NCBI GenBank assembly: GCA_903864935.1
Contig: CAIPHT010000017.1
Coordinates: forward strand, 16,096-80,095
From: Candidatus Vogelbacteria bacterium
GTDB taxonomy: Bacteria > Patescibacteriota > Minisyncoccia > Phycocordibacterales > XYD1-FULL-46-19
DNA: 64,000 nt
Reading direction: 5' to 3'
How positions within the stretch are numbered: the first letter of the stretch is position 1; each line of letters starts with the position of its first letter. The notes under the pieces are model-generated. The model worked only from the letters and a program-made list of their open reading frames with translations. It did no database searches and was not told the origin of the DNA. This document shows positions 17,249 to 63,750 of this stretch, one piece after another. The translations under genes and the position numbers were made by a program.

Positions 17249-17566
17249 ATGAAGACAAACGCCGTTTTTTTGGGTATGTTGGTGGTCGCCATTGTCCTTT
17301 TGGCCCTGCAGTTTTGTCGGCCTGAAGTGATCGTTGCACCACCGGCTACTTCCACAACCACGACGACCCGTGTCGTCACCCCTCACCCCGTCTCTGAGCC
17401 GCTGGCCGTTAGGCCTGCGTCTCTGCCTGTTCCGACACTGTCGCCAGTTGCGCAATTGTCGGAAGTTGATCAGAAGTTGGACCAAAATGGTTTCGCCCTA
17501 TCGGCGGAGACCCATAAGATGTCGGTGCGTCTACCTGTCGCGTCGGCAAAAAACATCAACAAGTAG
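17249..17566 (+). CDS. small secreted or membrane-anchored Thr/Pro-rich hypothetical protein (GC-rich cassette gene 1)
   Basis: AAGGAGG RBS 6-7 nt upstream of the ATG. N-terminal hydrophobic segment (AVFLGMLVVAIVLLALQF). GC-rich relative to its surroundings. The track ORF began at an earlier in-frame ATG at 17168 that overlaps the palindrome. Confidence 0.55.
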   Translation: MKTNAVFLGMLVVAIVLLALQFCRPEVIVAPPATSTTTTTRVVTPHPVSEPLAVRPASLPVPTLSPVAQLSEVDQKLDQNGFALSAETHKMSVRLPVASAKNINK

Positions 17567-17581
17567 AAGGAGATTGAAGAG

Positions 17582-18646
17582 ATGAAGAAGATGTTGTTTG
17601 TGCTCGCATTGGCCCTCGTGGTCGTTGCCACGCCCGTTTGGGCGGCCCCTACCGAGGACGAACTCCTGCGTATGGCCAGCGCCTACGCTGGTCTCAACGT
17701 GACGCAGTATGAGGGGGACTTCGGGTTTACTCGGCTCCTTGTGAACGGATCGACACAGTTGGTCAACGGGAGCTTCACCATGATGGCAAACGGCGAGATC
17801 CCTCGCCTAGTCATCAATGGCGAGCAGGTCGTGGATTGGGGCGACGAGCCGTTGAGTGGTCTCCCTGAGAACAAAGTGGGCAGCGCGACCGATTACCACG
17901 TCCAGCTTAACGGCTGGGACGGGGAGTTGGGTCGCTACGTGACCTATGGGTGGTTCCAAGTCCCGCTCATGAAGCCGGGCGATCCCATTGCGGTTCAACT
18001 CTCCCTGTATTTTCAAGAGAGGCTTGTCAGCTTCGATCTCGACGGTCGACCGGCGGGCTCGGTGGTCTTGCGTATTATCGGCGACTCACGCTTCAGTTAC
18101 GATACCAATCGTGGCGCCTTCGATGTCTGGGTGGATCCAGCTTCGGCCGGTGACTACGAGATTGTCGATGTCGCCAGCGGAGAAGTACTGGCTACCGGGA
18201 GCATTCAGGTTGGTGCGAGCGGTAACAACACGGTCAATGCCATAATGCCCAACGGCATTAAGGAGTTGATCCCCGCCGGTGAGGACAGCATGTCTTGGTC
18301 CAACCAGAATTTCCAAGCCGTGAGTACTGGCAAGGCCTGGGTGCCGATGTTGGTCTACGTTGCTCGTGCCTACGGCTCTGGTCTGTCCATTGGTCCCAAT
18401 TTGCCATTCGGTGGGACCATTAACGTCTATTCGGTTGACGGTGACGAGTCAAAACTCGTACTCACAAAGGATGTCCCGATGAGTGTCGAGGTACCCTTTC
18501 CCGGTGGCGTGGGCAAGGCCGGTGGTTCCAATGTCGAGGTTCCCGCCGGCTTTGACCATCTCGTAATCCAGGTTGTCGGCAACGACAACAGCTGGAACAC
18601 TTCCTTCAGTCTCTGGGCCTGCCGCAATGGCGGTGGCAAAGGCTGA
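17582..18646 (+). CDS. secreted hypothetical protein, 354 aa, with a cleavable-looking signal peptide (GC-rich cassette gene 2)
   Basis: AAGGAG RBS. Signal peptide MKKMLFVLALALVVVATPVWAAP. Clearly higher GC than the neighbouring genes. No family recognised. Confidence 0.65.
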   Translation: MKKMLFVLALALVVVATPVWAAPTEDELLRMASAYAGLNVTQYEGDFGFTRLLVNGSTQLVNGSFTMMANGEIPRLVINGEQVVDWGDEPLSGLPENKVGSATDYHVQLNGWDGELGRYVTYGWFQVPLMKPGDPIAVQLSLYFQERLVSFDLDGRPAGSVVLRIIGDSRFSYDTNRGAFDVWVDPASAGDYEIVDVASGEVLATGSIQVGASGNNTVNAIMPNGIKELIPAGEDSMSWSNQNFQAVSTGKAWVPMLVYVARAYGSGLSIGPNLPFGGTINVYSVDGDESKLVLTKDVPMSVEVPFPGGVGKAGGSNVEVPAGFDHLVIQVVGNDNSWNTSFSLWACRNGGGKG

Positions 18647-18667
18647 TCGCTTCCTTCCTGTTCGAAC

Positions 18668-18697
18668 CAAGCCCCCGACGCAACGCGTCCGGGGGCT
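18668..18697 (+). terminator. GC hairpin (aagcccccgacgc..gcgtccgggggctt) after cassette gene 2, with no clean U-tract
   Basis: Imperfect 13-bp inverted repeat immediately after the stop at 18646. Confidence 0.4.
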
Positions 18698-18730
18698 TTC
18701 TACTTCTCCTTCTTAATATTATAACACAGA

Positions 18731-18758
18731 AAAATGTCCAACATCCGATGTTGGACAT
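18731..18758. repeat. 29-nt palindrome copy 2 (AAAATGTCCAACAT-CCG-ATGTTGGACAT), downstream of the cassette and upstream of rpmG
   Basis: 25 nt identical to copy 1. Confidence 0.9.
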
Positions 18759-18780
18759 CTGAGGGACATTTTGGAGAATT

Positions 18781-18809
18781 TGCCTTTTTGGGCCTTTTCC
18801 TGTATAGTA
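18781..18809 (+). promoter_or_regulatory. candidate promoter TTGCCT, 17-nt spacer, TATAGT upstream of rpmG
   Basis: ttgcctttttgggccttttcctgtatagt. Spacing is canonical, but the -35 is a weak match. Confidence 0.35.
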
Positions 18810-18833
18810 AGACGGTCCTAAATATATATCATT

Positions 18834-18992: not shown

Positions 18993-19008
18993 GCCTCTTG
19001 GTTTTTTT
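18982..19008 (+). terminator. intrinsic terminator after rpmG: CCAAGA/TCTTGG stem plus TTTTTTT
   Basis: 6-bp stem, 8-nt loop, U7 tract. Confidence 0.5.
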
Positions 19009-19053
19009 GTTGCTTGCTTGGTTTTTAGTTTCTAAATAGTTTATACTTATAGA

Positions 19054-20385: not shown

Positions 20386-20417
20386 TAAAATTAACCTAAT
20401 TACTAAAAAAAATTCCA

Positions 20418-24341: not shown

Positions 24342-24398
24342 AATTGACCTAAAATTGTTGATTTTTGCCTTTTGATTTGCCAATGTTATAATAGCCCT

Positions 24399-24776
24399 AT
24401 GGCCCCTAAAAAAACTATGACAATTGAAGATTTGGCTAAGTTAATGAAGCAAGGCTTCTCTAAAGCTGATACAGACACCGATAAAAAAATCGATAACTTA
24501 GCTGTTGCAATGCAAAAAGGCTTTGCTAAGGCCGAGAAAGATACCGATAAAAAAATCGATAACTTAGCGGTTATGGTTCAGCAAGGTTTTGAAGAAGTTC
24601 ATGCCGATATTTCCGATCTCAAGACCGACATTTCTCGTTTGGATGGAAGAATGGACAACATTGAGACCCGAATGGATAGCCTCGAACTTAAAATTGATGG
24701 CGTGAGAAGCATCATTGTTGTCGAGCATGGCAAGAGAATTGAGAAGCTCGAAAAGGCAGTTTTTCTTGGCCATTAG
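24399..24776 (+). CDS. small coiled-coil protein with an internal 22-aa tandem repeat (TDKKIDNLAV.MQ.GF); likely leaderless
   Basis: The ATG at 24399 lies 6 nt after a TGn-TATAAT box (24384-24392). The nucleotide repeat gatac(c/a)gataaaaaaatcgataacttagc occurs twice, 66 nt apart. Confidence 0.5.
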   Translation: MAPKKTMTIEDLAKLMKQGFSKADTDTDKKIDNLAVAMQKGFAKAEKDTDKKIDNLAVMVQQGFEEVHADISDLKTDISRLDGRMDNIETRMDSLELKIDGVRSIIVVEHGKRIEKLEKAVFLGH

Positions 24777-24778
24777 AA

Positions 24779-24799
24779 CTTAGAGGCTTCGCCTCTAAG
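24779..24799. repeat. REP-like palindrome, family 1, copy a: CTTAGAGGC-TTC-GCCTCTAAG
   Basis: Perfect 9-bp arms with a 3-nt loop, 2 nt after the stop of the 24399 gene. Confidence 0.9.
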
Positions 24800-24812
24800 T
24801 GAAGTTGTTTTT

Positions 24813-25193
24813 ATGAAAATCATAAAAGAAGGGAACGAGCTAGTTCTAAGGCTCCCCTTGTTACAAAAAGAGAATAATTTCTATAAAGGGGAGGAAGATT
24901 TAATTGATACCCAAAACTTAATTGGGGTTGTTTCCGGTAATGAATATACTATTTCTCAATTGAATGATCTTTCTTATAAAGGTGACCAACAAGAAGGTAT
25001 GCCGATTATCTATTTCTCAAGCAAAGAAGAACTAAAAGAAGCTTGTAAAACCTGTGGAATTGACATCTGGGAACACCCACTCTGTGCTTATTGTGGAAAA
25101 GTTATCAGAGGAAGCTCTACTTGGGCGAGCAAAGGTACCCAATGTTGGGATTGTTCTAATTTAGAGAACTTAGAGGCTTCGCCTCTAAGTTGA
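24813..25193 (+). CDS. hypothetical protein with a C-terminal Cys-rich zinc-ribbon-like segment; its stop codon is embedded in REP1 copy b
   Basis: 126 aa. C-terminus CKTCG..(11 aa)..CAYCGK..(12 aa)..CWDCSN. The last codons (LEASPLS) are encoded by the palindrome. Confidence 0.5.
   Translation: MKIIKEGNELVLRLPLLQKENNFYKGEEDLIDTQNLIGVVSGNEYTISQLNDLSYKGDQQEGMPIIYFSSKEELKEACKTCGIDIWEHPLCAYCGKVIRGSSTWASKGTQCWDCSNLENLEASPLS
25169..25189. repeat. REP-like palindrome, family 1, copy b (identical to copy a)
   Basis: cttagaggcttcgcctctaag. Overlaps the 3' end of the 24813 CDS and sits 24 nt upstream of the transposase ATG. Confidence 0.9.
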
Positions 25194-25212
25194 TAAGTAT
25201 AAACAAAAACAA

Positions 25213-25878
25213 ATGGCTCAAAGAAAAGTCGAGTTTGCAATTGGAGAGTACTATCATATCTACAATCGAGGGGTTGAGGGTCGGTGTATTTTTGCTGACC
25301 AGAAAGATCTGGCTCATTTTGCGCAAAGTGTCGAAGAGTTTAATGGAAACAATGTGGTCGGAGGCCTGTATATGGGCTCTTTTAAGAAACACAAAGAGAG
25401 GGGAGAGAAATTGGTAAATATAATTTGTTACGCTTTTAACCCTAATCATTACCACTTTTTAATGACCCCGTTGGTTGATAAAGGGATAGAAAATTTTATG
25501 CAAAGGCTTGGTACGGGTCACGCTATGTTTTTTAATAATCAACACAAAAGGAAGGGCCGATTGTTTCAAGGGGTTTTCAAATCTGTTCATGTTGGTTCAA
25601 ATAGACAGCTTTTGCATGCGAGTGTTTATGTTAATCTTAACGATAAAATCCACCAAATCGGAGGCGAAGCCTCTAAGTTGGTAAAGACAAGTTGGGGTAG
25701 TTATTCTTCGAATTCTTCAAAAAAGAGAGACTTTTTGCTTGGTGACACCAGTATTATTACCGATCAATTTAAAAATTTTCAAGAATATAAAAAATTTGCT
25801 GAAGAAATTTTGCCTGATATTATTGCCCGCAAAAAATCTCTAAAAGAGCTTGAAGAATTGATGTTGGATGAGAATTAA
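25213..25878 (+). CDS. HuH-family tyrosine transposase of the IS200/REP-associated (RAYT-like) type, copy 1
   Basis: N-terminal IGEYYHIYNRGVEGR. HuH motif NPNHYHFLM. RKGRLFQGVF. Tyr-containing segment ASVYVNLN, then WGSYSS. Paralogous to the 42223 gene. Flanked by family-1 palindromes, with a degenerate copy (GAGGCGAAGCCTCTAAG at 25662-25678) inside the CDS. Confidence 0.75.
   Translation: MAQRKVEFAIGEYYHIYNRGVEGRCIFADQKDLAHFAQSVEEFNGNNVVGGLYMGSFKKHKERGEKLVNIICYAFNPNHYHFLMTPLVDKGIENFMQRLGTGHAMFFNNQHKRKGRLFQGVFKSVHVGSNRQLLHASVYVNLNDKIHQIGGEASKLVKTSWGSYSSNSSKKRDFLLGDTSIITDQFKNFQEYKKFAEEILPDIIARKKSLKELEELMLDEN
25662..25678. repeat. degenerate REP1 copy (3' arm and loop only) inside the transposase CDS
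   Basis: ggaggcgaagcctctaag, encoding IGGEASKLV. Confidence 0.6.
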
Positions 25879-25882
25879 TCAC

Positions 25883-25903
25883 TTAGAGGCGAAGCCTCTA
25901 AGT
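25883..25903. repeat. REP-like palindrome, family 1, copy d: CTTAGAGGC-GAA-GCCTCTAAG, i.e. the opposite orientation
   Basis: Exact reverse complement of copies a and b, 5 nt after the transposase stop. Confidence 0.9.
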
Positions 25904-25937
25904 TGTAGAAATTTCCCCCTGACTTATCCACTTTTTT

Positions 25938-42096: not shown

Positions 42097-42120
42097 TTCA
42101 CCGAGGTAGTTTTTTGCCCA

Positions 42121-42149
42121 ATCACCGCTAGGCATTGCCTAGCGGTGAT
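42121..42149. repeat. REP-like palindrome, family 2, copy a: core CCGCTAGGC-ATT-GCCTAGCGG, extended to 14-bp arms (ATCACCGCTAGGCA/TGCCTAGCGGTGAT)
   Basis: Perfect inverted repeat read directly. Confidence 0.9.
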
Positions 42150-42195
42150 TATACGTTGCAAACAAAGGCTAAATTTATCCACATTTTTCCATTTT

Positions 42196-42216
42196 CCGCT
42201 AGGCATTGCCTAGCGG
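42196..42216. repeat. REP-like palindrome, family 2, copy b, followed by TATAAT and the transposase ATG
   Basis: ccgctaggcattgcctagcgg, then tataat (42217-42222), then ATG at 42223. Confidence 0.9.
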
Positions 42217-42222
42217 TATAAT

Positions 42223-42903
42223 ATGTTTATGTCGGAAAGGAAATTTATTTTTTCGATCGGTGAATTTTATCACATCTATAATCGTGGAGTAGAGAAGCGC
42301 GTTATCTTTAACACGGTCGCAGACAAATATCGTTTCTTGAAGTTGCTTTATTTGTGTAATGGAGGAGAGCCTTTTAAGTTCGATGAACTAAAGAGAGGTG
42401 AGGAATATCTATTCAGACGGGGCGAACCGATTGTTGATATATGCGCCTATTGTTTAATGGACAATCACTATCATCTTATCCTGAGAGAAATTAAGGAGGG
42501 CGGGATCAGTATTTTTATGCACCGGCTTGGGACTTCTTACTCAGCCTATTTTAATAAATTGAATGAACGCAAAGGGTCATTATTCCAAGATAAATTTGGG
42601 GCCAGACATTTTGATAGTGATGAATATTTGAAATATGGGATTGCTTATAATCATCTTAATCCGGTGAAAATGGTTGAGCCCAAGTGGAAGGAGGAGGGCA
42701 TTAAAGATATGGATAAGGTAAAAAAATTTATCGAGAAATATCGCTTTTCTAGTTATCTTGATTATAAGGGCCAAAAACGGAACGAAAATCGCATTTTGAA
42801 TATGGATTCTTTGCCCGAGTATTTTGATAATGCCAAGGAGTTTGACGATTACTTAACTGATTGGCTAGGTTATCATGCGGAAGAACCGCTAGGCCTTGCC
42901 TAG
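42223..42903 (+). CDS. HuH-family tyrosine transposase of the IS200/REP-associated (RAYT-like) type, copy 2
   Basis: IGEFYHIYNRGVEKR. HuH motif MDNHYHLIL. RKGSLFQDKF. YGIAYNHLNPVK, comparable to the Y..NPVK motif of REP-associated Y1 transposases. FSSY. The stop codon TAG lies inside REP2 copy c. Confidence 0.8.
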   Translation: MFMSERKFIFSIGEFYHIYNRGVEKRVIFNTVADKYRFLKLLYLCNGGEPFKFDELKRGEEYLFRRGEPIVDICAYCLMDNHYHLILREIKEGGISIFMHRLGTSYSAYFNKLNERKGSLFQDKFGARHFDSDEYLKYGIAYNHLNPVKMVEPKWKEEGIKDMDKVKKFIEKYRFSSYLDYKGQKRNENRILNMDSLPEYFDNAKEFDDYLTDWLGYHAEEPLGLA

Positions 42904-42906
42904 CGG
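42886..42906. repeat. REP-like palindrome, family 2, copy c (loop variant CTT), overlapping the transposase stop
   Basis: ccgctaggccttgcctagcgg. Confidence 0.9.
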
Positions 42907-42957
42907 TAATTTAATGTCGATAAATAAGGCTTAAATAGCCACTGCTTTTGGAGTTTT

Positions 42958-42984
42958 CCCTAGGCATTGCCTAGCGGTTTTTTT
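42958..42984 (+). terminator. REP family 2, copy d (5' arm degenerate: CCCTAGGCATTGCCTAGCGG) plus T7; acts structurally as a hairpin and U-tract terminator
   Basis: Hairpin followed by ttttttt. Confidence 0.6.
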
Positions 42985-44430: not shown

Positions 44431-44514
44431 GCCGAAGTGGCGGAATTGGTAGACGCGCACGACTCAAAATCGTGTATCGCAAGATGTGAGAGTTCGATTC
44501 TCTCCTTCGGCACC
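44431..44514 (+). tRNA. tRNA-Leu (anticodon CAA), class II with long variable arm
   Basis: GCCGAAG-TG-GCGG-AATTGGTAGA-CGCG-CACGA-CTCAAAA-TCGTG-long arm-GAGAGTTCGATTCTCTC-CTTCGGC-A. Confidence 0.85.
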
Positions 44515-44519
44515 CACAT

Positions 44520-45497
44520 ATGTCAAATAATTACGAAGATCACATCTTCCTTATTGAGGTTGATAAAATTAAACCTAATCCTTATCAACCAAGGCGTGAA
44601 TTCAACGAAGAGCGTTTGCGAGATTTGGCTGACTCTATTAAGCAATATGGCGTCCTTCAGCCCCTCGTTGTCACGAGAAAGGAGGTGGAGCGCGAGGATG
44701 GTAGCCTCTATACCGAATACGAAATCATCGCCGGTGAGCGCCGTTGGCGTGCCTCGAAGTTGGCCGGCTTACCACAAGTCCCTGCCATTATCCGCACGGG
44801 CGAACAGAGCGACAAAGAGAAGTTGGAGCTAGCTATTATTGAGAATCTCCAACGTGAGGATTTGAATTCGGTTGACCGCGCCCAAGCTTTTGCTCGCTTG
44901 GTTTCGGAATTTGGCTTATCTCATGGCGAGGTGGGCAAACGTGTCGGCCGCAGTCGTGAGTATGTCTCGAACACCATTCGCATTCTCAATTTGCCTCAAG
45001 AAATTTTGACAGCCTTGGTCGCGGGTCAGATTGCCGAGGGTCACACCAAGCCACTCTTGATGCTGGCCGATCACCCCGAAGAACAAATCACCGTCTTCAA
45101 AGAGATTATGATTAAGAGGCTTACGGTGCGTGACACCGAGTCCATCGCCCGGCGTATTGCCTATGATCGGGTGCGCAAGAAGGAGACTTTTGTTGAGCCC
45201 GAGATCATTGAGCTCGAGAGCAAATTAACCGAGAAATATGGCAATCGAGTGAAGGTGGAGTCTAAGGGCGACACCGGCGGGCGAATTATGATTGACTTTA
45301 CTTCGTCCGACGAGCTGCGCCGCATCCTCTCCATGCTTGAGCAAGGTGGCCCGTCAAGTGTCATTGATATCCCCCTTACTGGTTTGGCCCCAGAGGAGGC
45401 GAGTCAAGAAATTAATATCGCCGAGACGAAGCCCGGACAAGAGGCCGAGCTTGAAGAGCCCGAGGACCTCTACTTCATTAAGAATTTTTCTCTTTAA
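44520..45497 (+). CDS. parB: chromosome partitioning protein ParB/Spo0J
   Basis: The I.P...QPR, GVLQP..V, GERRWRA and I.ENLQRE.L motifs are present. Confidence 0.9.
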
Positions 45498-49239: not shown

Positions 49240-49530
49240 TCAGAGGTCGACTGTCGGGAATGTCTCCCGCCGGCCGATCCAACTGCTAAACATGATGGAG
49301 GAATTTGTCATGGGAACGCAGCGGCGTCTTGTTCTGGCCAGCTTCGTCGCATAGGGTATTGAAAAGAACCCACCTAACTACGCCTTTCTTTGGTGTAGAT
49401 AGGCCCCGGTGCGAGCCCGGGTGGCGAAGGTTTGGCAAAAATGTTTTAGGGAGGCAGGCACTTTGGACCTGCGCATCCCGCCACCGGCGTGCCGTTCCTA
49501 TTGGATTCGGCGCGCCTCTTTTTTTTATAA
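49240..49530. ncRNA. GC-rich structured intergenic island of about 290 nt, a candidate small RNA of unassigned class
   Basis: Sharp local GC rise in a 434-nt AT-rich intergenic region between topA and the PaaX-like gene. Many short complementary GC blocks (ggccccggtgcgagcccgggtggc etc.). Ends in ggcgcgcctcttttttttat. Track ORFs on both strands (49286..49546 minus, 49305..49598 plus) are Arg-rich and unconvincing. No match recognised by eye to RNase P, tmRNA, SRP or 6S. Confidence 0.3.
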
Positions 49531-49555
49531 AATTATCAAAAGTCATATCAATTGA

Positions 49556-49590
49556 CGCTAACTATATTTTCACGGTCGTGAATAATTTGT
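49556..49590. promoter_or_regulatory. Left flanking element of the PaaX-like gene: CTAACTATATT followed by the imperfect palindrome TTCACGGTCGTGAA
   Basis: taactatattttcacggtcgtgaataatttgttag. The palindrome core is at 49569-49582. Confidence 0.6.
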
Positions 49591-49602
49591 TAGAATAACA
49601 AG

Positions 49603-50166
49603 ATGAAGTTTAGTTTAAAACTTAAGCCAAGCGAATTGGAATCAGGCGAGCTGAGTATACCTCTTGCTGTTCTCGCCGTAATCGCTGTCTCTGGTATTAT
49701 GGCAACAGCTTCTGTGGCTCCTGGAGTGATGCCTCTTCTTAAATATTTAAAAAAGAAAAGAAAAATATATCCCTCGCATATAAACTCCTGCCTAGATCGG
49801 CTGATTAAAAATGGGTTAATTCATAAAAAGGATGGTAAATTGTCTTTAACCACAAAAGGTGAACTACGCTTATCAAAATATCAAGAAGAACTTTCCCCAA
49901 GCAGAAGAAAATGGGATAAAAAATGGCGAATTGTGATTTTTGATATTTGGGAAAAGAGTCGCAAGAAGAGAGACTTTTTGCGGAATGAATTATCCGACTT
50001 CGGTTTTGTTAAATTGCAGAATAGCGTTTGGGTGACCCCTTATGATTGTGAAGAGTATGTTAATTTATTAAAAACGGATATCGGGATTGGTCGGGGAGTT
50101 GTTTATATAATAGCCGATAAAATTGATAACGAACTCGTTCTCAAAAAGATATTTGGTTTAGTTTAG
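49603..50166 (+). CDS. PaaX-like winged-helix transcriptional regulator
   Basis: wHTH-like SCLDRLIKNGLIHKKDGKLSLTTKG, followed by WDKKWRIVIFDIWEKSRKKRDFLRNELSDFGFVKLQNSVWVTP. That second segment parallels the WDG.W..L.......R..L...L...GFG.L..S....P segment of PaaX family proteins. Confidence 0.5.
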   Translation: MKFSLKLKPSELESGELSIPLAVLAVIAVSGIMATASVAPGVMPLLKYLKKKRKIYPSHINSCLDRLIKNGLIHKKDGKLSLTTKGELRLSKYQEELSPSRRKWDKKWRIVIFDIWEKSRKKRDFLRNELSDFGFVKLQNSVWVTPYDCEEYVNLLKTDIGIGRGVVYIIADKIDNELVLKKIFGLV

Positions 50167-50167
50167 T

Positions 50168-50202
50168 CACTAACTATATTCTCACGACCGTGAAAAAATA
50201 GT
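50168..50202. promoter_or_regulatory. Right flanking element of the PaaX-like gene: CTAACTATATT followed by CTCACGACCGTGAA, the inverted core
   Basis: taactatattctcacgaccgtgaaaaaatagttag. Shares the 11-nt direct repeat CTAACTATATT with the left element. Confidence 0.6.
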
Positions 50203-50232
50203 TAGTCATTTAAAAATGAATTGATCTTATTT

Positions 50233-51159
50233 TTAAGCCAACCTTACTTCGCCCATGGATTCCTTAATTATGCCTTTAATCTCCATGGTGGAGAGGATGA
50301 TATTAGCTTCGCTGGCGGAGAGTTCGGCCACTTCGATAAGCTCATCGCGGGGGAAGGAGTCGGTCTCTAAGATATCAACAATTTTTTGTTCGATGGGGGA
50401 GAGGTCGAGGAAGAGGCGACCTTGCTTTTCTCTTTCTTTCTCATCAGTATTGAAGCCGAGCGCTTGGAGTAAGTTCTCACTTTTATTAATGGGCATGGCG
50501 CCTTGGCGGATTAAACTATTAGCACCACGAGAAGATGGAGAGAAGATAGAGCCCGGCACGACGAGAACATCTCGATTGTATTCCATCGCGAGGCGCGCGG
50601 TGATAAGGGTGCCCGATTTCTCCCCCGCCTCTATTATAAGAGTGGCATGAGAGAGCCCCGCCATAATGCGATTGCGCCTTGGGAAGGTGTGGAGGCCGGC
50701 GGGGCACTCGGGCTCAAGTTCGGACAAGAGACATCCCCCTCGTTCTATTATCTCGTCGGCTAAGCGATGGTTGGTAAAAGGGTGGAGAACATTGCGACTG
50801 GTGCCCGAGCCAGGGACGGCGATGGTTAGCAAATTATTTTTAAGCGCGCTCTGGTGGGCGATAGTGTCGATACCTAAAGCAAGTCCGGAGACTATAACAA
50901 TGGGGTAGCCGGCGAGTCCAGCAATTAATTCTTCGCAAGCCTCTTTGCCATAACGGGAATATTTGCGCGAGCCAACCACGGCCAAGAATTTATATTCGTT
51001 ATCTCTGGGCAAATCCCCTTCTAGATATAGAAATTCTGGCGGGTCATTGATTTCCTTAAGCAAAGCGGGGAAGTCTTTTGGCTCTAATTTTTTGAATTTA
51101 GATTTCACTGATAAATATTTTAGCAAATTAAGAAATTTCTCGCACGATTTGCAAAACAA
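50233..51159 (-). CDS. dprA: DNA processing protein DprA (Smf)
   Basis: The core segment VVGSRKYSRYGKEACEELIAGLAGYPIVIVSGLALGIDTIAHQSAL...GTSRNVLHPFTNHRLA carries the GxGxD and nucleotide-binding-fold elements of the DprA/Smf core. Confidence 0.85.
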   Translation of the reverse strand: MFCKSCEKFLNLLKYLSVKSKFKKLEPKDFPALLKEINDPPEFLYLEGDLPRDNEYKFLAVVGSRKYSRYGKEACEELIAGLAGYPIVIVSGLALGIDTIAHQSALKNNLLTIAVPGSGTSRNVLHPFTNHRLADEIIERGGCLLSELEPECPAGLHTFPRRNRIMAGLSHATLIIEAGEKSGTLITARLAMEYNRDVLVVPGSIFSPSSRGANSLIRQGAMPINKSENLLQALGFNTDEKEREKQGRLFLDLSPIEQKIVDILETDSFPRDELIEVAELSASEANIILSTMEIKGIIKESMGEVRLA

Positions 51160-51219
51160 TTTAGTCTTCGGCTATAATAATGAGCGGATTACAACTCAAA
51201 CATAAGGAGTGATTGCACT

Positions 51220-51339
51220 ATGGATACCGAGGAGAAGGATGTTCTGCCAGTAAGTGAATCTGAACCACTGTCGGTTAAGGTCACAAAAGACGCCGTCCCT
51301 GGTCCCAACCCCGACGAGGAGACCGAGGGCCGTTTGTAA
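51220..51339 (+). CDS. small GC-rich acidic ORF (39 aa) between a sigma70-like promoter and serS; possibly a leader peptide or an artefact
   Basis: Promoter TTGCAA, 18-nt spacer, TATAAT at 51149-51178. TAAGGAG RBS. Followed by hairpin CCCGC-tca-GCGGG and T7 at 51368-51397. Confidence 0.3.
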   Translation: MDTEEKDVLPVSESEPLSVKVTKDAVPGPNPDEETEGRL

Positions 51340-51448
51340 TGATGACCTCTTGCTCTCATGCCTCCGTCCCGCTCAGCGGGCCGGGGGCGCTTTTTTTCTT
51401 CCTTATTATTTGCTATCATTAAATCAATCAATTAATCCACTATATATT

Positions 51449-53575: not shown

Positions 53576-53590
53576 AGGCGCGAGGCTTTT

Positions 53591-53680
53591 CAAAATTACT
53601 AAGCCTCGCTTAACTGCCGGGCTACAAATGAGGGGATTTTTGACATTGACAGGGAGGTATTGTTAGTGCTATAATTAAAG
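53591..53680 (+). promoter_or_regulatory. Promoter module copy 1: conserved 45-nt upstream block, then TTGACA, an 18-nt spacer and TGcTATAAT
   Basis: caaaattactaagcctcgcttaactgccgggctacaaatgagggg...ttgacagggaggtattgttagtgctataat. About 88 percent identical by eye to copy 2 at 54531-54623. Confidence 0.65.
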
Positions 53681-53739
53681 TAGAAAGAATAAACGGCTAC
53701 TGGCAAAGCCAGCAAGCTTTTGAAAAGGAAGGAGCTGCT

Positions 53740-54357
53740 ATGAAGGATCCTCTTACCATTCTCTTTGTTGAGGATGGCGATGGACACTTTGCTGACCTGC
53801 AGCAGATGCTGGCCATCGAGATTCCTCGCTTGCCGATCCGGGTCAACGCGCTTTTTGCTCGCACCCAAGTCGAAGCCGAGGCCCTGCTAAATCAGGCTGA
53901 TGCCGTGATGACCGATGTTTTCTTTCCCGCCGAAGTCGGAGACAAAGAAGCCGGTAACGGTCTGGCAATTGTCGCGCTCTGCTTGGAGAAGAAAAAACCC
54001 GTGGTTTGGATCACAAGCACCTATCATCATGGGACGAAGACTGACCCTCTCAACGAATGGGGGTGTAAACACGGCCTCAAGATGTTCGACTCCTGCACTC
54101 CGGACTCAACTAGTGAGAACGATACAGAGGGCGATCATAAGCCGTGGAAGTCAGCCCTTTTGGGACTCTTCTATGTGATTGTGGCTGTCGAAAGCGGGGC
54201 GGCGATCTTCAAGGATGGCTGCATTATTCAGAGCCGTAACGGTCATGGCCTTCATCACTGCATGTACGATATACATTACTATTGCAGTGGGGAAGGAGAC
54301 CTCTCTCGGGAGCCGGTTCTGATCAAGATGAAGGAAGAGGGGTTCCCCCTCGACTGA
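53740..54357 (+). CDS. stand-alone CheY-like receiver-domain protein with an additional C-terminal region of unknown function (GC-rich, SD-led)
   Basis: AAGGAG RBS. ILFVEDGDG..L.., then a hydrophobic beta-strand followed by the Asp of AVMTDVFFP (candidate phospho-acceptor). The conserved Thr is in VVWITST. Confidence 0.5.
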   Translation: MKDPLTILFVEDGDGHFADLQQMLAIEIPRLPIRVNALFARTQVEAEALLNQADAVMTDVFFPAEVGDKEAGNGLAIVALCLEKKKPVVWITSTYHHGTKTDPLNEWGCKHGLKMFDSCTPDSTSENDTEGDHKPWKSALLGLFYVIVAVESGAAIFKDGCIIQSRNGHGLHHCMYDIHYYCSGEGDLSREPVLIKMKEEGFPLD

Positions 54358-54530
54358 ACTCTTTCCACAATACTTTCCGCCCGCAGTGCCGCCTGGCTCT
54401 GTCGGGCGGTTTCTGTTTATCTCAATTATATGTGAAGCCCCGAGTGCTTCACATCATCCGACCGTGCCCGCCAAAGCTTTAGTGTCAGCGGCGGTTGTTT
54501 TACTGAACGAGCCCTCGCTTGAATCCCCAG

Positions 54531-54623
54531 CTCAAAATTACTAAGCTTCGCTTAACTGCAGGGCTACAAATAAGGTGATTTCTGGTCTTGACAGAGAGGG
54601 GTCATTGGTGCTATAATTAAAAG
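54531..54623 (+). promoter_or_regulatory. Promoter module copy 2 (TTGACA, 18-nt spacer, TGcTATAAT) upstream of the small gene at 54675
   Basis: ctcaaaattactaagcttcgcttaactgcagggctacaaataaggtgatttctggtcttgacagagaggggtcattggtgctataat. Confidence 0.65.
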
Positions 54624-54674
54624 AGAGTAACTTTGTATCGTCTAGTGCTTCTAAACTTGAGACAGGAGGTCTAT

Positions 54675-54872
54675 ATGGACAAGATTTACGAGGACAATGA
54701 CTTGATTGTAAGTGTTGATTCAGACCTTGGGGTTGTTGTTGAGTTGAAATCTCGCGACAATGTCGGTGTCAGGATTGACCCCACCCTGGGGTCCTTGGTT
54801 GTCCAGGTGAGAGCTGGGTCGGAGATGGTTGTCTCCGGGAAGGGGATGACGGAAATCCGAGCCTTGACATAG
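54675..54872 (+). CDS. small hypothetical protein (65 aa), GC-rich, AGGAGG RBS
   Basis: MDKIYEDNDLIVSVDSDLGVVVELKSRDNVGVRIDPTLGSLVVQVRAGSEMVVSGKGMTEIRALT. Followed by a strong terminator. Confidence 0.45.
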   Translation: MDKIYEDNDLIVSVDSDLGVVVELKSRDNVGVRIDPTLGSLVVQVRAGSEMVVSGKGMTEIRALT

Positions 54873-54883
54873 AAGACTTTTTG

Positions 54884-54940
54884 TCACCGCCGGACGACCA
54901 GCGAGAAATCGCTGGCTCGTCTGGCGGTTTTTCGTTTTTA
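54884..54940 (+). terminator. long imperfect hairpin (about 19 bp: caccgccggacgaccagcga-gaaa-tcgctggctcgtctggcggt) plus a T-run
   Basis: read directly. Confidence 0.7.
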
Positions 54941-54988
54941 TACACAGTCTGGTCGGGCAAAGTCGTGAATTTGTAGTATAATTAAATC

Positions 54989-55384
54989 ATGCGCTTTCTA
55001 GCGATTATTGTTAACTATATCATCTGGCATTATACGCGGGCGATTTTGGAATTCAGTCATATTTATAAAAATATTCTATCTTTTCTTTTTAATTTCTTTT
55101 CGATCCCGATTCTTATTCGTTCTTATTTTGCCCCGTGGCGTCGCATGGGTGAAGATTATACCAAGAATATTGTCACGGACTTGGAGGATGTGGCCTCGGT
55201 CTTTGTGGTGAACACCATTATGCGTTTGGTGGGTATGGTAATGCGCACGATAATTATTGTCTTGGGGCTTCTCTTTATTGCTTTGGTTGCCTTGTTTTAT
55301 CCCATCTTACTTTTTATCTGGCTGATTATGCCCTTGATTTTAATTTTCCTAGTAACGCTCGGGGTTGGCCTAATTATCAATTAA
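54989..55384 (+). CDS. small polytopic membrane protein, hypothetical
   Basis: 131 aa with at least 3 hydrophobic helices. Overlaps the next gene by 4 nt, so it is probably co-transcribed. Confidence 0.55.
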   Translation: MRFLAIIVNYIIWHYTRAILEFSHIYKNILSFLFNFFSIPILIRSYFAPWRRMGEDYTKNIVTDLEDVASVFVVNTIMRLVGMVMRTIIIVLGLLFIALVALFYPILLFIWLIMPLILIFLVTLGVGLIIN

Positions 55385-58884: not shown

Positions 58885-58904
58885 AAATCTTCTTTAATAA
58901 GGGG

Positions 58905-59963: not shown

Positions 59964-59970
59964 TCAATCG

Positions 59971-59984: not shown

Positions 59985-60078
59985 TAGTTTATTACCTAAA
60001 AGAATCTTTTTCGCTTGATTTTTATTTAGACCAGCGCATACTTATTCTTGGGTTGATCAACACATGGAGGACTTTGTT

Positions 60079-60306
60079 ATGAAGAAGTTGTTGGCCGTGT
60101 GGTGTGCGTTTCAGGCGGGGCTTCACAAGGCCGGCTGGTTTGGCATTGTCAAGGCACTGGGCGAATTCGATCACTCCGAATTTCGCCAGAACCTTCCTCC
60201 TGAACAGGCCGAGGAGGTTCGGGCTCGCATCGTTCAAGCGAAAGACGAGGAGGCTGAAAATTTCCATCTCCACTGGGAGCGACGACGACGCCTGCTCTTC
60301 CGCTGA
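60079..60306 (+). CDS. small GC-rich hypothetical protein (75 aa) with GGAGG RBS; low confidence
   Basis: GGAGG 8 nt before the ATG at 60079 (the track start at 60064 precedes the RBS). A competing ORF exists on the minus strand (60022..60327), so the coding strand is uncertain. Confidence 0.3.
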   Translation: MKKLLAVWCAFQAGLHKAGWFGIVKALGEFDHSEFRQNLPPEQAEEVRARIVQAKDEEAENFHLHWERRRRLLFR

Positions 60307-60533
60307 AGCATAAGCAAGGAGGTTCAAATGGAAGTCTTAGATGCAATCTTTCTTTGGGATTTTTTCTGGAGGAATCTGAGGCAATTGGTGATGCTGATCT
60401 GGAATCTCATCTTCAATCCTGACAACGTTTTCTTCTCGTGAGTGTCCGGCGCGGGCCCCATCATGGGGCACGCGCCGGTTTTTGTTTTAGGATGCCTTTT
60501 GTCATCTCTCGAGCTCCTTGCTATAATCTCTTT

Positions 60534-61562
60534 ATGTCTGAAGTTGCCCTATATCGCAAATATCGCCCGAGCAAATTTAGTGAAGTGATTGGCCAGGACC
60601 AAGTCACGGGTGTCTTGGCGGAGTCTATTAAACACGACAATATTGTCCATGCTTATCTCTTCTCTGGACCACGTGGGACCGGCAAGACGAGCGTCGCCCG
60701 TATCTTCGCCAAGGCCTTGGGCACGAGCGATAACGACTTGATTGAGATTGATGGCGCCTCTAATCGCGGGATTGATGAGATTCGCGCTTTGCGTGATGCC
60801 GTGCGCACTCTACCCTTCGAATCGCGCTATAAGGTCTACATTATCGACGAGGTGCACATGTTGACTAAAGATGCCTTCAACGCCCTTCTCAAGACCTTAG
60901 AAGAGCCACCAGCGCATGTTATCTTTATCCTAGCGACCACTGAACAGCACAAAGTGCTAGAAACAATTGTCTCGCGTTGCCAGTCTTACGTTTTTAAAAA
61001 ACCAACTATTGAAATTCTTAAGAAGGTGGCTAAAGATATTGCTAAAGAAGAGGGCTTCACCGTCTCGGATGATGTGGCGGACCTCTTGGCCTTCATGGGG
61101 GACGGCTCCTTCCGTGACACTATTGGTATTTTGCAAAAAATTATCGGTTCATCGGCGGATAAGAAAATTGCACTAGAAGAAGTGGAGAGAATTACCGGCG
61201 CGCCAGCGATGAGGTTGGTTTATGATTTTATCTTAGCTCTCGCTGATGGCAATCGCGACCAGGCCTTAACCTTGATTGATAAGGGTGTAGAGACCTCTAT
61301 TGATTTCAAAATTTTCTTGAAGTTGGTAATGAGAGAAATTCGCCTCGCCTTACTTCTTGTCATGGCCCCATCTTTAGAAAATAAAATAATGAATGAAGCG
61401 GGGGAGAAAGAGACTGAATTTTTCAATACGCTTAAAACCAAACCTCAGTCCAAGATCTTGGCCCCTGCCTTGCGTGAATTTCTCGATACGTATTTACAAT
61501 TATCTGGCTCGTATCTTCCTCAAGTCCCTCTTGAACTTGCGGTAATTAAGATTTTGGGGTAA
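60534..61562 (+). CDS. dnaX: DNA polymerase III subunit gamma/tau, short form (domains I-III only)
   Basis: YRKYRP..F.EV.GQ, Walker A GPRGTGKTS, DEVHML (Walker B), SRC sensor. The ATG lies 7 nt after TGcTATAAT (60520-60527), so the gene is probably leaderless. The track start at 60438 is rejected. Confidence 0.85.
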   Translation: MSEVALYRKYRPSKFSEVIGQDQVTGVLAESIKHDNIVHAYLFSGPRGTGKTSVARIFAKALGTSDNDLIEIDGASNRGIDEIRALRDAVRTLPFESRYKVYIIDEVHMLTKDAFNALLKTLEEPPAHVIFILATTEQHKVLETIVSRCQSYVFKKPTIEILKKVAKDIAKEEGFTVSDDVADLLAFMGDGSFRDTIGILQKIIGSSADKKIALEEVERITGAPAMRLVYDFILALADGNRDQALTLIDKGVETSIDFKIFLKLVMREIRLALLLVMAPSLENKIMNEAGEKETEFFNTLKTKPQSKILAPALREFLDTYLQLSGSYLPQVPLELAVIKILG

Positions 61563-61628
61563 AAATAGAGTGGAGTTTGTAACATTTGTTCAAGACCTTG
61601 CGCAAGCAAGGTAAGCAAGGAGGTTATT

Positions 61629-61961
61629 TTGGGTGTTTATAAGTTGGCAAAAAAGAAGGGGAGTTTCAAGATTGAAGAATTCACTGCGTTTAGTTTTGGA
61701 GCGCTTCGCTCCGGAACGAGGTTTTACACCAACGAGGAAGGCTACGGGTCTTCCTATAAGAAGGAATACCCCGACCCTAAGAAAGAAAAAACCGATGATC
61801 GTAACACTCGTCGACTTGGCGGACGTGGCGGACGTTGCCACTTCTCAGACGAAGATGTTGTGTATGTGGCCTTGTCGGAGCAGAAACGGGTAAAAAGGGA
61901 GATGGCCAAGGAGGCCCTCCTTAGGGTAAATAGCAAGAAAACTGGGCCCAAGGCCCACTAA
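61629..61961 (+). CDS. small basic hypothetical protein (110 aa), GC-rich, AGGAGG RBS, TTG start
   Basis: RBS aggagg at 61617-61622. No family recognised. Confidence 0.35.
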   Translation: MGVYKLAKKKGSFKIEEFTAFSFGALRSGTRFYTNEEGYGSSYKKEYPDPKKEKTDDRNTRRLGGRGGRCHFSDEDVVYVALSEQKRVKREMAKEALLRVNSKKTGPKAH

Positions 61962-61988
61962 ACTGCGGGAGCAGAGGAGGTCTCAATC

Positions 61989-62291
61989 ATGTCCACTCCT
62001 AAGAAACCGAGGAAAAGGAAACGCTATGTCCAATCGCACTTTTTCGAGCTTGTTCCCGGAACCGTTTTCCGTGACGCCGATGAAGGCAGCGGGAAGCGCT
62101 ATGTCAAAATGTTTCTTCCTTTTGAGGAGCAACGGGATCCGAGAAAAGCGAACAGCCAACGCCTTACGTCCAAAGGCGAAGAAGGAGGCTATCGCCACTT
62201 CAGTCCGAACACGAAGGTGTTTGCGACCCAGGTGGAGATGGATCGGGCCACAGATGCTCTTGTGCAGCGGATGAACAGGATTCATCCCTGA
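61989..62291 (+). CDS. small basic hypothetical protein (100 aa), GC-rich, GAGGAGG RBS
   Basis: Followed by a strong GC hairpin and T-rich terminator at 62309-62356. Confidence 0.4.
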   Translation: MSTPKKPRKRKRYVQSHFFELVPGTVFRDADEGSGKRYVKMFLPFEEQRDPRKANSQRLTSKGEEGGYRHFSPNTKVFATQVEMDRATDALVQRMNRIHP

Positions 62292-62308
62292 CTTTCCCCT
62301 GACCAAGC

Positions 62309-62356
62309 CGGCCACCAGCGCGTATCGTCGCGCGGGTGGCCGTTTCTATTTATTTT
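62309..62356 (+). terminator. intrinsic terminator: 14-bp GC stem (cggccaccagcgcg/cgcgcgggtggccg) plus a T-rich tract
   Basis: read directly. Confidence 0.7.
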
Positions 62357-62422
62357 AAAATCAATTAAAAATCTTACTTCGCTCTACTGAGCTCAGCATC
62401 TTCGTCACCTTCGTTCCTCGAG

Positions 62423-62493
62423 CTGCGGGACTTGGAATCGAACCAAGATACTGAGCTTCAAAGGCTCATGTCCTACCTTTAGACGATCCCGCA
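62423..62493 (-). tRNA. tRNA-Gln (anticodon TTG)
   Basis: Minus-strand TGCGGGA-TC-GTC-TAAAGGTAG-GAC-A-TGAGC-CTTTGAA-GCTCA-GTAT-CTTGG-TTCGATT-CCAAG-TCCCGCA-G. 3-bp D stem. Confidence 0.75.
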
Positions 62494-62721
62494 ATATTTA
62501 CTAAATTGTTCTAATATTAAACACTTTTTTCTGACTTTTCGCAATAATGGGCAAAGGCCCTATTGACCAAACTTTATATTAATTGTAGTTTTAAGTCAGA
62601 TTGGGTCTGGTGCCTGATCGTTGAAATCGGATAAGGTGGGTCGTCTGCCCGCCAAGTCCACAGACCTCTCCCCTGGGGAAGAGGTTGGCAATGCAGCTCT
62701 GGTGGCTGCGGAAAGGATGAG

Positions 62722-63750
62722 ATGGGAATCGCAAATACGAGTTTTCGACTTGAAGTCTATCTGGAGTCGGCGAATTTATCGTTGCTCTGTCAAGTTAAGC
62801 CGATGCCTCCGGCTGACCGAGTATCGCACATCGATGGTATTATCCGTTTGGTGGTCGGGACTGTGGCCGAGCTTGATGCGGCTTCGGTGAAGTCGGCGAC
62901 GGAGAGGGAGCTTGTGTCCCTTGTTAAATCGCTCAACCTGGCCATCAAGGATCAGTACTCACCTATCGGGGATGAAAATGAAGATGCCTACGTCAAAGCG
63001 ATTGGCACTGCCTGTCTGGCTCTCTATGAGTCCTTGCCAGAGCGCTTCGACATCCTTATTGGCCTGAGGAGAGCACTCCTTGACCTTATGTTGGCCAGCT
63101 GGTCCTCAGAGTGGACCGAGGTCGAAGATACCGAGAAAAAGATCGTTTTCATCCTTGAAGCCACAACGGCCGATTCACGGCTCGACCAACATGTTGCGGG
63201 CTGGCTACGGGCCCATTTCTTTAGCGGGAGCATGAATTCTGTGCAGGAGTTTCGGGGCGAAATCCTCTGCCGCAAGTTGATGAAAATGGATGCGTCGAAG
63301 CGGCCGACGGCGATCATGCGGGCCGTCCTTGCGCATTGGTTCCGGAATCTGGATTCGCCGACGGCTGCCGCCCTCTACAAGGTCGGAGTCTGCTTGACGG
63401 AAAACCCTCCGGCGTTTGATGCCGCGGCCGCATCAGTCATTGCGCACACTGATGCCGTCAGAGCCCTTGCCTACAAGGCCACGGTGGTTGTGGATTGGCT
63501 TAAGGGGAGCGACAAACTGCTGGCCTTCGACTTCCGCATCAAGCACCTCGACCCGGCCACGGGGAGGATTGACCTTGAGACAGATCGGTTCGATGGCGGC
63601 TACTTTACTCTCGCGACCATCTTCCAAGAGGCTCGCGTTACTCTCATGCCGTACAAGGAAAGAACGGGCGATGACAACTTCACGGTCATGCTGACCCTCG
63701 TGGACAGCGGGGAGCAACTCAGGGCAGACGAGACCGAAAAAATCTGGTAG
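62722..63750 (+). CDS. hypothetical cytoplasmic protein (342 aa), moderately GC-rich
   Basis: AAAGGATGAG RBS region. No recognisable motifs. Followed by a strong terminator. Confidence 0.5.
   Translation: MGIANTSFRLEVYLESANLSLLCQVKPMPPADRVSHIDGIIRLVVGTVAELDAASVKSATERELVSLVKSLNLAIKDQYSPIGDENEDAYVKAIGTACLALYESLPERFDILIGLRRALLDLMLASWSSEWTEVEDTEKKIVFILEATTADSRLDQHVAGWLRAHFFSGSMNSVQEFRGEILCRKLMKMDASKRPTAIMRAVLAHWFRNLDSPTAAALYKVGVCLTENPPAFDAAAASVIAHTDAVRALAYKATVVVDWLKGSDKLLAFDFRIKHLDPATGRIDLETDRFDGGYFTLATIFQEARVTLMPYKERTGDDNFTVMLTLVDSGEQLRADETEKIW

Follow-up and report, generated by a model that had tools for sequence, protein, structure and literature searches.

The stretch of DNA analysed here, which we call the window, is a 64-kb segment of contig CAIPHT010000017.1 with a GC content of 46.3%, and its source is an ultra-small bacterium of the Paceibacteria type within the candidate phyla radiation (CPR). 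Two classes of protein-coding gene are interspersed along it: core genes that lack a Shine–Dalgarno (SD) sequence, and GC-rich islets of accessory genes that are led by an SD and fall into modules, here lettered A to G, whose signals, conservation and origin are our subject. The window carries two giant surface-protein genes and genes for cohesin-, dockerin-, Ig-like and LamG-domain proteins, a content typical of CPR bacteria (Patescibacteria), together with clpB, sodA, miaA, parB, relA/spoT, topA, dprA, serS, dacA, dus and dnaX, two IS200-like Y1 transposase genes and four transfer RNAs. DnaX is at most 55% identical to that of any species representative, the top matches being metagenome-assembled genomes (MAGs) of Paceibacterota/Parcubacteria. 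The same strain is present in several ENA and Logan assemblies, and gene order agrees in independent assemblies from other samples, where positions 62341-63998 recur at 100% identity; these independent contigs rule out a chimeric assembly. No ribosomal RNA gene was found in the window or in any related locus examined, and profile library scans of the window proteins revealed no integrase.

Start codons were curated for the 38 complete genes of the window, 10 of them SD-led and 28 not. Homology to Pfam families sets the starts of serS and dnaX at 51449 and 60534, and the longest open reading frames (ORFs) overshoot these supported starts upstream by 65 and 32 codons, respectively; start models trained on ribosome-binding sites (RBSs) will therefore mislead when CPR genes are called in this lineage. 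For comparison we used a sister genome (JGI contig Ga0373121_0334534, loci L085 and L090), reached via the 205-aa islet protein isl205. Two stretches, miaA to dnaX and clpB to the giant gene, run in the same gene order there as in the window, and its core proteins are 77-98% identical to those of the window.

Starts of the core genes

Three starts exemplify the core class:

60499-60536, plus strand: dnaX promoter, TTGTCA, 17 nt, TATAAT, then 6 nt to the ATG at 60534, no SD
24387-24401, plus strand: start of the gene at 24399, TATAAT, then 6 nt to the ATG at 24399
54977-54991, plus strand: start of hyp131, TATAAT, then 6 nt to the ATG at 54989

A TATAAT or TAGAAT lies 6 nt before the ATG not only of dnaX, the 24399 gene and hyp131 (54989) but also of the second Y1-transposase gene (42229) and a PaaX-like gene (49603), and weaker -10 boxes stand 6-7 nt from the starts of topA, the Ig-dockerin gene, relA and miaA; in the giant gene the spacer is 13 nt. 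The promoter and start architecture of dnaX is identical in the sister locus L085. When gene calls from six genomes were pooled and -10 hexamers with at least 5/6 matches accepted, the spacing peaked at 6-8 nt before the start, a position occupied in 23/83 non-SD genes vs 0/29 SD genes, and the interval of 5-9 nt held 26/70 of the -10 hexamers (binomial p=8e-8). Transcripts from a -10 box placed 6-8 nt ahead of the ATG are expected to begin at that codon or beside it, which fits the view that many core genes give leaderless mRNA. Of the genes for which the preliminary description of this DNA had proposed such starts, dnaX, the giant gene (with its longer spacer), the transposase gene at 42229 and the 24399 gene stand; serS in the window has no good -10 box 4-9 nt from its start (the sister genome has TATAAT followed by 8 nt), and the Hsp100 and cohesin-like genes were unconfirmed.

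Core genes inside operons also lack an SD, overlapping the preceding gene or following it after gaps of 3-30 nt with A-rich spacers. They comprise sodA, hyp286, the LamG gene and, 3' of hyp131, the clp-like gene at 55388 (3-nt gap), dacA at 57835 (4-nt overlap) and dus at 58905 (20-nt gap).

tRNA-Leu has its 3' end at 44514, 5 nt before the parB start codon (44520), and no promoter separates the two (44431-44522); tRNA processing could free a near-leaderless parB mRNA.

Signals and composition of the SD-led class

Eight segments had been singled out in the preliminary description as visibly GC-rich, SD-led and closed by strong GC hairpin terminators:

17249-18646: GC 56.9%
51220-51339: GC 54.2%
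53740-54357: GC 52.9%
54675-54872: GC 51.0%
60079-60306: GC 57.0%
61629-61961: GC 48.9%
61989-62291: GC 52.5%
62722-63750: GC 55.7%

A scan of both strands for GGAGG, AGGAG or GAGGA, followed 4-12 nt on by the start of an ORF of 30 codons or more, bore out the observation. Between genes it found only the ORFs already listed and an unlisted one at 60328-60441 (37 codons), all remaining matches lying inside known genes; isl342 (62722), which carries the weaker AAGGA, was not among the strong-motif matches. Every listed ORF start has its SD (AGGAGG, GGAGG or AAGGAG elsewhere) 4-11 nt on the 5' side, so that an SD at functional spacing is found in 10/10 islet ORFs and in 0/28 core genes.

The two classes also differ in composition. 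Mean GC content at third codon positions (GC3) is 0.62 (range 0.55-0.70) in the 10 SD-led ORFs vs 0.47 in the 28 non-SD genes (Mann-Whitney p=4.4e-6), and parB is the only non-SD gene above 0.55. GC content at second positions (GC2) does not differ between them, and the shift therefore lies mainly in codon choice, G- and C-ending codons replacing T-ending ones in the islets. Translational selection for high expression is unsupported as its cause, rpmG, clpB and sodA having GC3 values of only 0.44-0.53. Compared one by one with equal-length in-frame stretches of core genes, 17582-18646 and 62722-63750 lie outside the core GC distribution (p<5e-4), and for 53740-54357, 17249-17566 and 60079-60306 the deviation is marginal to clear (p 0.006-0.07). 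The segments are thus visibly GC-rich as a class and in the two long islets, but about half of the ORFs are not when taken singly. Since several islets are unremarkable in GC and the giant genes in part reach 54%, the robust discriminator is the combination of SD, promoter and terminator, not GC alone.

In the regions scanned, sigma-70 promoters matching the consensus at 12/12 positions occur only 5' of modules A (17112), C (53646) and D (54588); module B has a weaker promoter-like site, and no promoter was identified for modules E, F and G. A GC-rich hairpin followed by a T-run ends every module, as had been claimed; the terminators at 54388 and 63774 were found by scan and the remaining ones read from sequence. 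None of the ten islet products has a Pfam match at or above the curated cut-off or any match in NCBIfam, PHROGs or PADLOC; the one sub-threshold Pfam match is that of isl100 to DUF1639 (E=0.0012). The idea that the islets are structured RNA genes was dropped, as the only Rfam matches in the window (gathering score and E<=1) are four tRNAs, none of them beneath an islet, and a scan of the sister locus likewise gave no structured RNA beneath its islets.

Organization and conservation of the modules

The modules comprise the following features:

17112-17140, plus strand: module A promoter, consensus sigma-70, TTGACA, 17 nt, TATAAT, 12/12
17249-17566, plus strand: isl105 of module A, SD AGGAGG (5 nt), 105 aa, GC3 0.61
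17582-18646, plus strand: isl354 of module A, SD AAGGAG, 354 aa, GC 57.7%, GC3 0.70
18671-18703, plus strand: module A terminator, GCCCCCG...CGGGGGC then TTTCT, read from sequence
17198-17228 and 18732-18762, no strand assigned: 27-31-nt palindromic repeat bracketing module A, from a repeat search
51149-51398, plus strand: module B, promoter-like site 51149-51178 (10/12), SD AAGGAG, isl39 ORF 51220-51339, terminator 51360-51398
53590-54420, plus strand: module C, 95-nt repeat with 12/12 promoter 53646-53675, SD, isl205 53740-54357, terminator 54388-54420
54532-54939, plus strand: module D, second copy of the 95-nt repeat, 12/12 promoter 54588-54617, SD AGGAGG, isl65 54675-54872, terminator 54886-54939
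60062-60488, plus strand: module E, SD GGAGG and isl75 60079-60306, SD AGGAGG and isl37 60328-60441, terminator 60446-60488
61612-62356, plus strand: module F, isl110 61629-61961 and isl100 61989-62291, each with AGGAGG, terminator 62310-62356
62722-63813, plus strand: module G, isl342 with the weaker SD, 342 aa, GC 55.7%, GC3 0.67, terminator 63774-63813

Module A and module C have orthologues in the corresponding slots of the sister genome, where modules B, D and G are absent, E is replaced and F is single-copy. The leader of module A is ~100 nt long and includes a small hairpin and U-run at 17158-17185. isl105 has an N-terminal membrane anchor, a Pro/Thr/Val-rich tail and weak orthologues in the same position of L090 and L094 (dN/dS, the ratio of nonsynonymous to synonymous divergence, 0.85). 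isl354 (dN/dS 0.22 against the sister genome) has a signal-peptide-like N-terminus, as read from its sequence, and its AlphaFold model is a confident all-beta multi-sandwich (mean predicted local distance difference test score, pLDDT, 82) with domain-level similarity to the receptor-binding domain of Clostridium perfringens enterotoxin, to Cry-toxin domains and to botulinum HA70, at low global TM-scores; the model suggests, only as a lead, a secreted binding protein.

An exhaustive phmmer search returned ~100 relatives of isl354, and all those with an organism name are CPR (two Paceibacterota, one Vogelbacteria, one Gottesmanbacteria), one more being labelled just 'bacterium'. A pair consisting of a small ORF (67-102 aa) and an ORF of ~350 aa lies in or beside the interval from clpB/tRNA-Tyr to rpmG in six genomes and is always SD-led; the relatives concerned are L090 (the sister), L092, L093, L094 and L095, and include a Paceibacterota MAG, the MAG GCA_964655995.1, a Vogelbacteria MAG and one other contig. 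In a seventh genome, L096, the pair adjoins a tRNA and a serine recombinase with OLD/UvrD-type genes. The promoter and the short leader hairpin and U-run 5' of the pair are kept in 7/7 genomes (window, L090, L092-L096), whereas isl354 is 43%, 29% and 34% identical to relatives in which ClpB is 94%, 72% and 74% identical.

The leader hairpin (17141-17185) is a GC stem of 5-8 bp ~20 nt past the promoter, followed by the U-run, with one covarying pair among the seven genomes, and could be an attenuator or a 5' stabiliser. The palindrome pair around module A, of which none is expected by chance, is absent from L090. Next to the module, tRNA-Tyr (16862-16945) is inverted: it lies on the minus strand, whereas four related genomes have it on the plus strand after clpB. 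A copy of its 5' half, interrupted in the D-loop region by a 22-nt GC hairpin, stands at 16985-17047. The interval from tRNA-Tyr to rpmG is in relatives a variable hotspot with SD-led GC-rich cargo (ornithine decarboxylase and aminotransferase, or pyrF and pyrE). L090 holds a ~300-nt GC-rich non-coding stretch with a terminator between clpB and tRNA-Tyr (1690-1990), which lacks an Rfam family at gathering score and has no counterpart in the window.

Module C, with a leader of ~58 nt, encodes isl205, whose AlphaFold model (pLDDT 87) shows a receiver-domain-like fold with a C-terminal extension and matches response-regulator receivers. Its orthologue in the sister (L085 10001-10618) occupies the same slot, is 66.5% identical and shares the promoter repeat, the SD and the terminator, with a GC content of 54-57% vs ~40% in the flanks; dN/dS between the two is 0.16. 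Further metagenome loci of the isl205 family are likewise SD-led, GC3-rich and terminator-ended, and IMG/VR contains no relative of the family.

The isl205 module lies between long direct repeats in two unrelated contexts, at 53590-53684/54532-54626 of the window (95 nt, 83% identity) and at 9719-9846/10708-10835 of L088 (128 nt, 80% identity). In the window the promoter lies inside the repeat, and there its -10 region is similar to the leaderless promoter (54969-54986) of the core gene that follows, which hints at insertion or duplication at leaderless promoters. L088, which has a second isl205 homologue, also holds a transfer-messenger RNA and a LOOT RNA (Rfam RF03000) at 527-923 and 4212-4325.

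The remaining modules are the variable ones. The 39-aa acidic ORF isl39 of module B lies between dprA and the serS start (ATG 51449), and the module is wholly absent from the sister, where the dprA-serS gap is 62 nt; module D, with the 65-aa isl65 and a terminator that is a long GC hairpin, is missing from L085 as well. Module E holds isl75 (75 aa) and the 37-aa hydrophobic ORF isl37, and the dus-dnaX slot of L085 contains instead an unrelated SD-led GC-rich ORF of 103 aa, with the terminator and the leaderless dnaX promoter conserved. isl110 and isl100 of module F are tandem paralogous small basic proteins, with no terminator between dnaX and the module; the slot from dnaX to tRNA-Gln in L085 has a single 100-aa ORF of the same family (blastp E 2.6e-6 and 1.8e-5; 31-34% identity). 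Module G adjoins tRNA-Gln (62422-62493, minus strand), and isl342, absent from L085, matched only itself among 5.8 billion proteins in one word-indexed search. tblastn searches gave isl342 no match in plasmids or phages and isl354 none in phages. That isl342 belongs to a multi-copy element was rejected, the short contigs that carry it being 100% identical fragments of one locus. isl39, isl65, isl75 and isl37 had no match in comparisons with the sister locus and profile libraries.

The tRNA-Gln and its flank (62422-62548; L085 18729-18855) are inverted between window and sister, with SD-led modules on both sides in the window. An identical 14-nt sequence, TAAGCAAGGAGGTT, comprising stop codon context and SD, occurs at 60311-60324 and 61612-61625, before the unrelated isl37 and isl110.

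Persistence of the dichotomy among relatives

Synonymous divergence (dS) between window and sister is saturated for essentially all genes (0.6 to >3, mostly >1), and islets have the higher dN/dS, 0.16-0.85 vs 0.02-0.12 in core genes. For islets of low identity this saturation means that replacement and fast vertical evolution are not separable. GC3 of the islets is nevertheless 0.62-0.71 in both lineages, and since synonymous sites have turned over while GC3 stays high, the offset is best read as maintained, rather than as the fading trace of a donor; such persistence is unexpected under simple amelioration theory. The dichotomy in SD and GC3 recurs in the five related loci L085, L088, L090, L092 and L094 (p 0.002-0.23). 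In L093 (52% GC) the GC contrast is gone and the same families keep their SD, and among genomes the islet-core GC3 offset ranges from +0.08 to +0.33. Of seven more distant Parcubacteria loci scanned, six contain at most one SD-led ORF each and are rich in -10 boxes at 5-9 nt.

The SD-led class clearly belongs to the flexible genome, with gain, loss, replacement and tandem duplication slot by slot. Hints of mobility are the serine recombinase beside the pair (L096 only), the direct repeats, the tRNA-Tyr and tRNA-Gln inversions and the tRNA half-copy. No repeat is common to all modules, the pair-specific 27-nt palindrome and the 95-nt repeat being the only ones found. Integron cassettes were considered and rejected: modules A, C and D have their own promoters and B a 10/12 site, and there is neither attC nor integrase. 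A phage, plasmid or defence origin was likewise rejected, given the absence of PHROGs, PADLOC and NCBIfam matches for the ten ORFs and of the isl205 family from IMG/VR.

Interpretation and rival explanations

The explanation that we prefer, with a probability of roughly 0.6, is that the islets form an accessory class present across the clade and built of autonomous promoter-leader-SD-ORF-terminator modules, which lie between core genes with leaderless or SD-less starts. The class is old, not a recent import, and its genes are united by expression architecture and rapid turnover. Signals, statistics, conservation and synteny were observed directly; the transcription start sites, the modes of initiation and the reason for the high GC3 are inferred. 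Many core genes would be transcribed from -10 boxes 6-8 nt before the ATG, placing the predicted transcription start at or beside it and yielding leaderless mRNA, and the short gaps or overlaps, A-rich spacers and missing SDs of downstream core cistrons suggest SD-independent reinitiation. Accessory genes, in turn, would be lineage-restricted, fast-evolving one- or two-gene units wedged between core genes, often by tRNAs. In modules A, C and D a consensus -35/-10 promoter, a 5' untranslated region (UTR) of ~50-100 nt and a canonical SD precede the GC3-rich ORF, and behind it stands a strong intrinsic terminator that would insulate the next leaderless promoter. Some modules are syntenic orthologues across species whose proteins evolve 3-10x faster than neighbouring core genes; others are gained, lost, duplicated or swapped for unrelated ones in the same intergenic slots. 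For the GC3 excess, continued exchange within a GC-richer CPR accessory pool and/or gene-specific selection is our preferred cause, biased conversion is a further candidate, and unameliorated foreign DNA is disfavoured because dS is saturated.

Several observations weigh against this explanation. Four of the ten ORFs are not GC-deviant singly, namely those at 51220, 61629 and 61989 (p 0.09-0.35) and that at 60328, and isl342, isl39, isl65, isl75 and isl37 lack homologues in limited comparisons, their origin and the coding status of the shortest ones being unproven. The related genomes compared are few and, because they are represented by orthologous regions, not fully independent of one another. 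The relatives' SD-led GC-rich metabolic genes (ornithine decarboxylase and aminotransferase in L090, pyrF and pyrE in L092, a radical-SAM gene in L088) resemble classical imports, and part of the SD-led class may be of non-CPR origin. The islet products share no evident function, which weakens the notion of a functionally distinct regulon with a different initiation mode that had been offered as an alternative; it survives as a description, the same families being SD-led in every genome examined.

The preliminary description had favoured a high-GC donor, possibly among the Actinobacteria: islets transferred again and again from an SD-using non-CPR donor, such as an actinobacterial host, would have retained the donor's composition and signals. 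The signature does look foreign in its higher GC3, SDs and strong terminators; isl39, isl65, isl75/37 and isl342 are patchy between the sister genomes, tRNAs and recombination scars lie close by, and the class in relatives includes plausible imports (ornithine decarboxylase, aminotransferase, pyrE, pyrF, radical SAM). Wherever it can be tested, however, the proposal is contradicted. Every islet with detectable homologues has them in CPR genomes only, and for isl354 and isl205 they lie in CPR genomes or loci that share the SD-less or leaderless core architecture; the largest islet is syntenic in six genomes with SD, promoter and leader conserved, dS is saturated between sisters that both keep GC3 at 0.62-0.71, and no phage, plasmid or defence family was matched. 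Named homologues being CPR throughout, Actinobacteria find no support as donor, and the islet GC3 of 0.55-0.70 is far below the values expected of them. We regard foreign acquisition as improbable, though it might still apply to isl342, isl39, isl65, isl75, isl37 and the relatives' SD-led metabolic genes.

Transfer might also be dispensed with altogether, the SD-led genes being native and both their leadered, SD-dependent translation and their GC-rich coding being kept by selection. The retention of SD, promoter and 5'-proximal hairpin and U-run in seven genomes despite 29-43% protein identity would follow, as would the survival of the GC3 excess through saturated dS, the SDs retained in L093 without GC contrast and the SD-less state of core genes, operon-internal ones included, throughout the clade. 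Selection of this kind could act via post-transcriptional control in the 5' UTR, mRNA stability or a ribosome subpopulation, by analogy with the few genes that carry an SD in the SD-less Bacteroidia. Set against it are the non-homologous replacement, presence/absence and tandem duplication in sister slots, the occurrence of the same families in differing genomic contexts (once by a recombinase) and the functional heterogeneity of the products, and an offset varying from +0.08 to +0.33 is hard to fit to one selective optimum; overall, native genes held by selection alone are a possibility that we rate below an even chance by a good way. Far less credible is that ordinary GC heterogeneity, fortuitous purine-rich motifs, spurious ORFs or a chimeric assembly created the pattern. 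The four GC-unremarkable ORFs, the partly 54% GC of the giant genes, the self-match of isl342 and the lack of matches for isl39, isl65, isl75 and isl37 in limited comparisons would fit chance or artefact, but the correctly spaced SDs (10/10 islet ORFs vs 0/28 core genes), the terminator 3' of every module, the confident folds and purifying selection of isl354 and isl205, and the recurrence of the pattern in independent genomes and agreeing independent assemblies leave very little room for it.

A bolder extension of the accessory-class explanation, which we consider unlikely, is that the SD-anti-SD pathway is reserved for a mobile GC-rich accessory set while housekeeping genes rely on leaderless or reinitiation-type translation, giving separate control channels with an actively maintained offset. 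If so, a change in 30S/SD-dependent initiation would turn accessory expression on or off as a whole, the accessory set would be largely secreted or regulatory, possibly for host interaction, and modules would move as promoter-leader-SD-ORF-terminator units, landing by leaderless promoters and tRNA genes.

Relation to known systems

In Bacteroidia, translation is SD-poor, the anti-SD is occluded and an SD is retained on rpsU. The genomes studied here are similar in that core genes are SD-less genome-wide and a small minority has a strong SD; they differ in that many core genes look leaderless, not leadered with A-rich Kozak-like contexts, and in that the SD set is accessory and variable and not a ribosomal-protein autoregulatory gene. 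Class III genes of Escherichia coli are an atypical or horizontally transferred class. Genes of the atypical or flexible kind share with the islets deviant composition, patchiness, tRNA adjacency, flanking repeats and mostly hypothetical products, but are usually AT-richer than their genome, whereas the islets are GC-richer (Lomsadze et al. 2018, PMC6028130). A further difference is that the largest modules are syntenic and SD-led across species, with no outside donor detectable and no amelioration despite saturated dS. The core genes recall the leaderless-rich genomes of GeneMarkS-2 'group C', for example Actinobacteria and Deinococcus-Thermus, in which a Pribnow box lies 6-8 nt from the start of many first genes and two start models per genome are used (PMC6028130). 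Operon-internal and leadered genes of group C use an RBS (PMC6028130), whereas the internal core genes here are SD-less and the SD is confined to a compositionally distinct accessory class. That study appears not to cover CPR lineages, and our literature search found no paper on leaderless mRNAs in CPR bacteria and no prior description of the pattern. The kinds involved, leaderless-rich genomes and atypical or flexible gene classes, are known; what appears new, judged from the genomes compared, is that SD initiation in a CPR clade is confined to compositionally distinct accessory modules conserved across species.

Together, SD, consensus promoter and terminator provide a sequence-only flag for fast-evolving accessory genes of an uncultured, episymbiont-type lineage; the product of isl354, one gene so flagged, is probably secreted and has predicted beta-sandwich domains similar to the receptor-binding domains of toxins. 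How and why initiation mechanisms are partitioned becomes testable in CPR bacteria.

Other elements in the window

The PaaX/Cas2-like gene (49603-50166, 187 aa) lies within 49535-50231, a clean 697-nt insertion relative to the sister genome, and is flanked by 24-nt inverted repeats (49558-49581, 50182-50205). It is AT-rich (36% GC) and has the leaderless-type start TAGAAT, 6 nt, ATG, and is thus mobile with 'native' signals, so that mobility alone is not tied to the GC and SD signature.

At 49240-49525 (plus strand) lies a ~285-nt GC-rich, structured, transcript-like element (fold z-score -3.4) with a terminator at its end; both ends are conserved in the sister (L085 6300-6620), and it has no Rfam match. 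It contains an SD-led ORF of 14 codons (MGTQRRLV...; 49310-49354) and may be an eleventh module, a small-protein gene or a new small RNA.

Two palindromes similar to repetitive extragenic palindromes (REPs) occur in several copies each around the IS200-like Y1 transposase genes (24775-25905, 42120-42978), ACTTAGAGGCTTCGCCTCTAAGT around 25213-25878 and CCGCTAGGCATTGCCTAGCGGT around 42229-42903. With the transposase genes they resemble arrangements of REPs and REP-associated tyrosine transposases (RAYTs).

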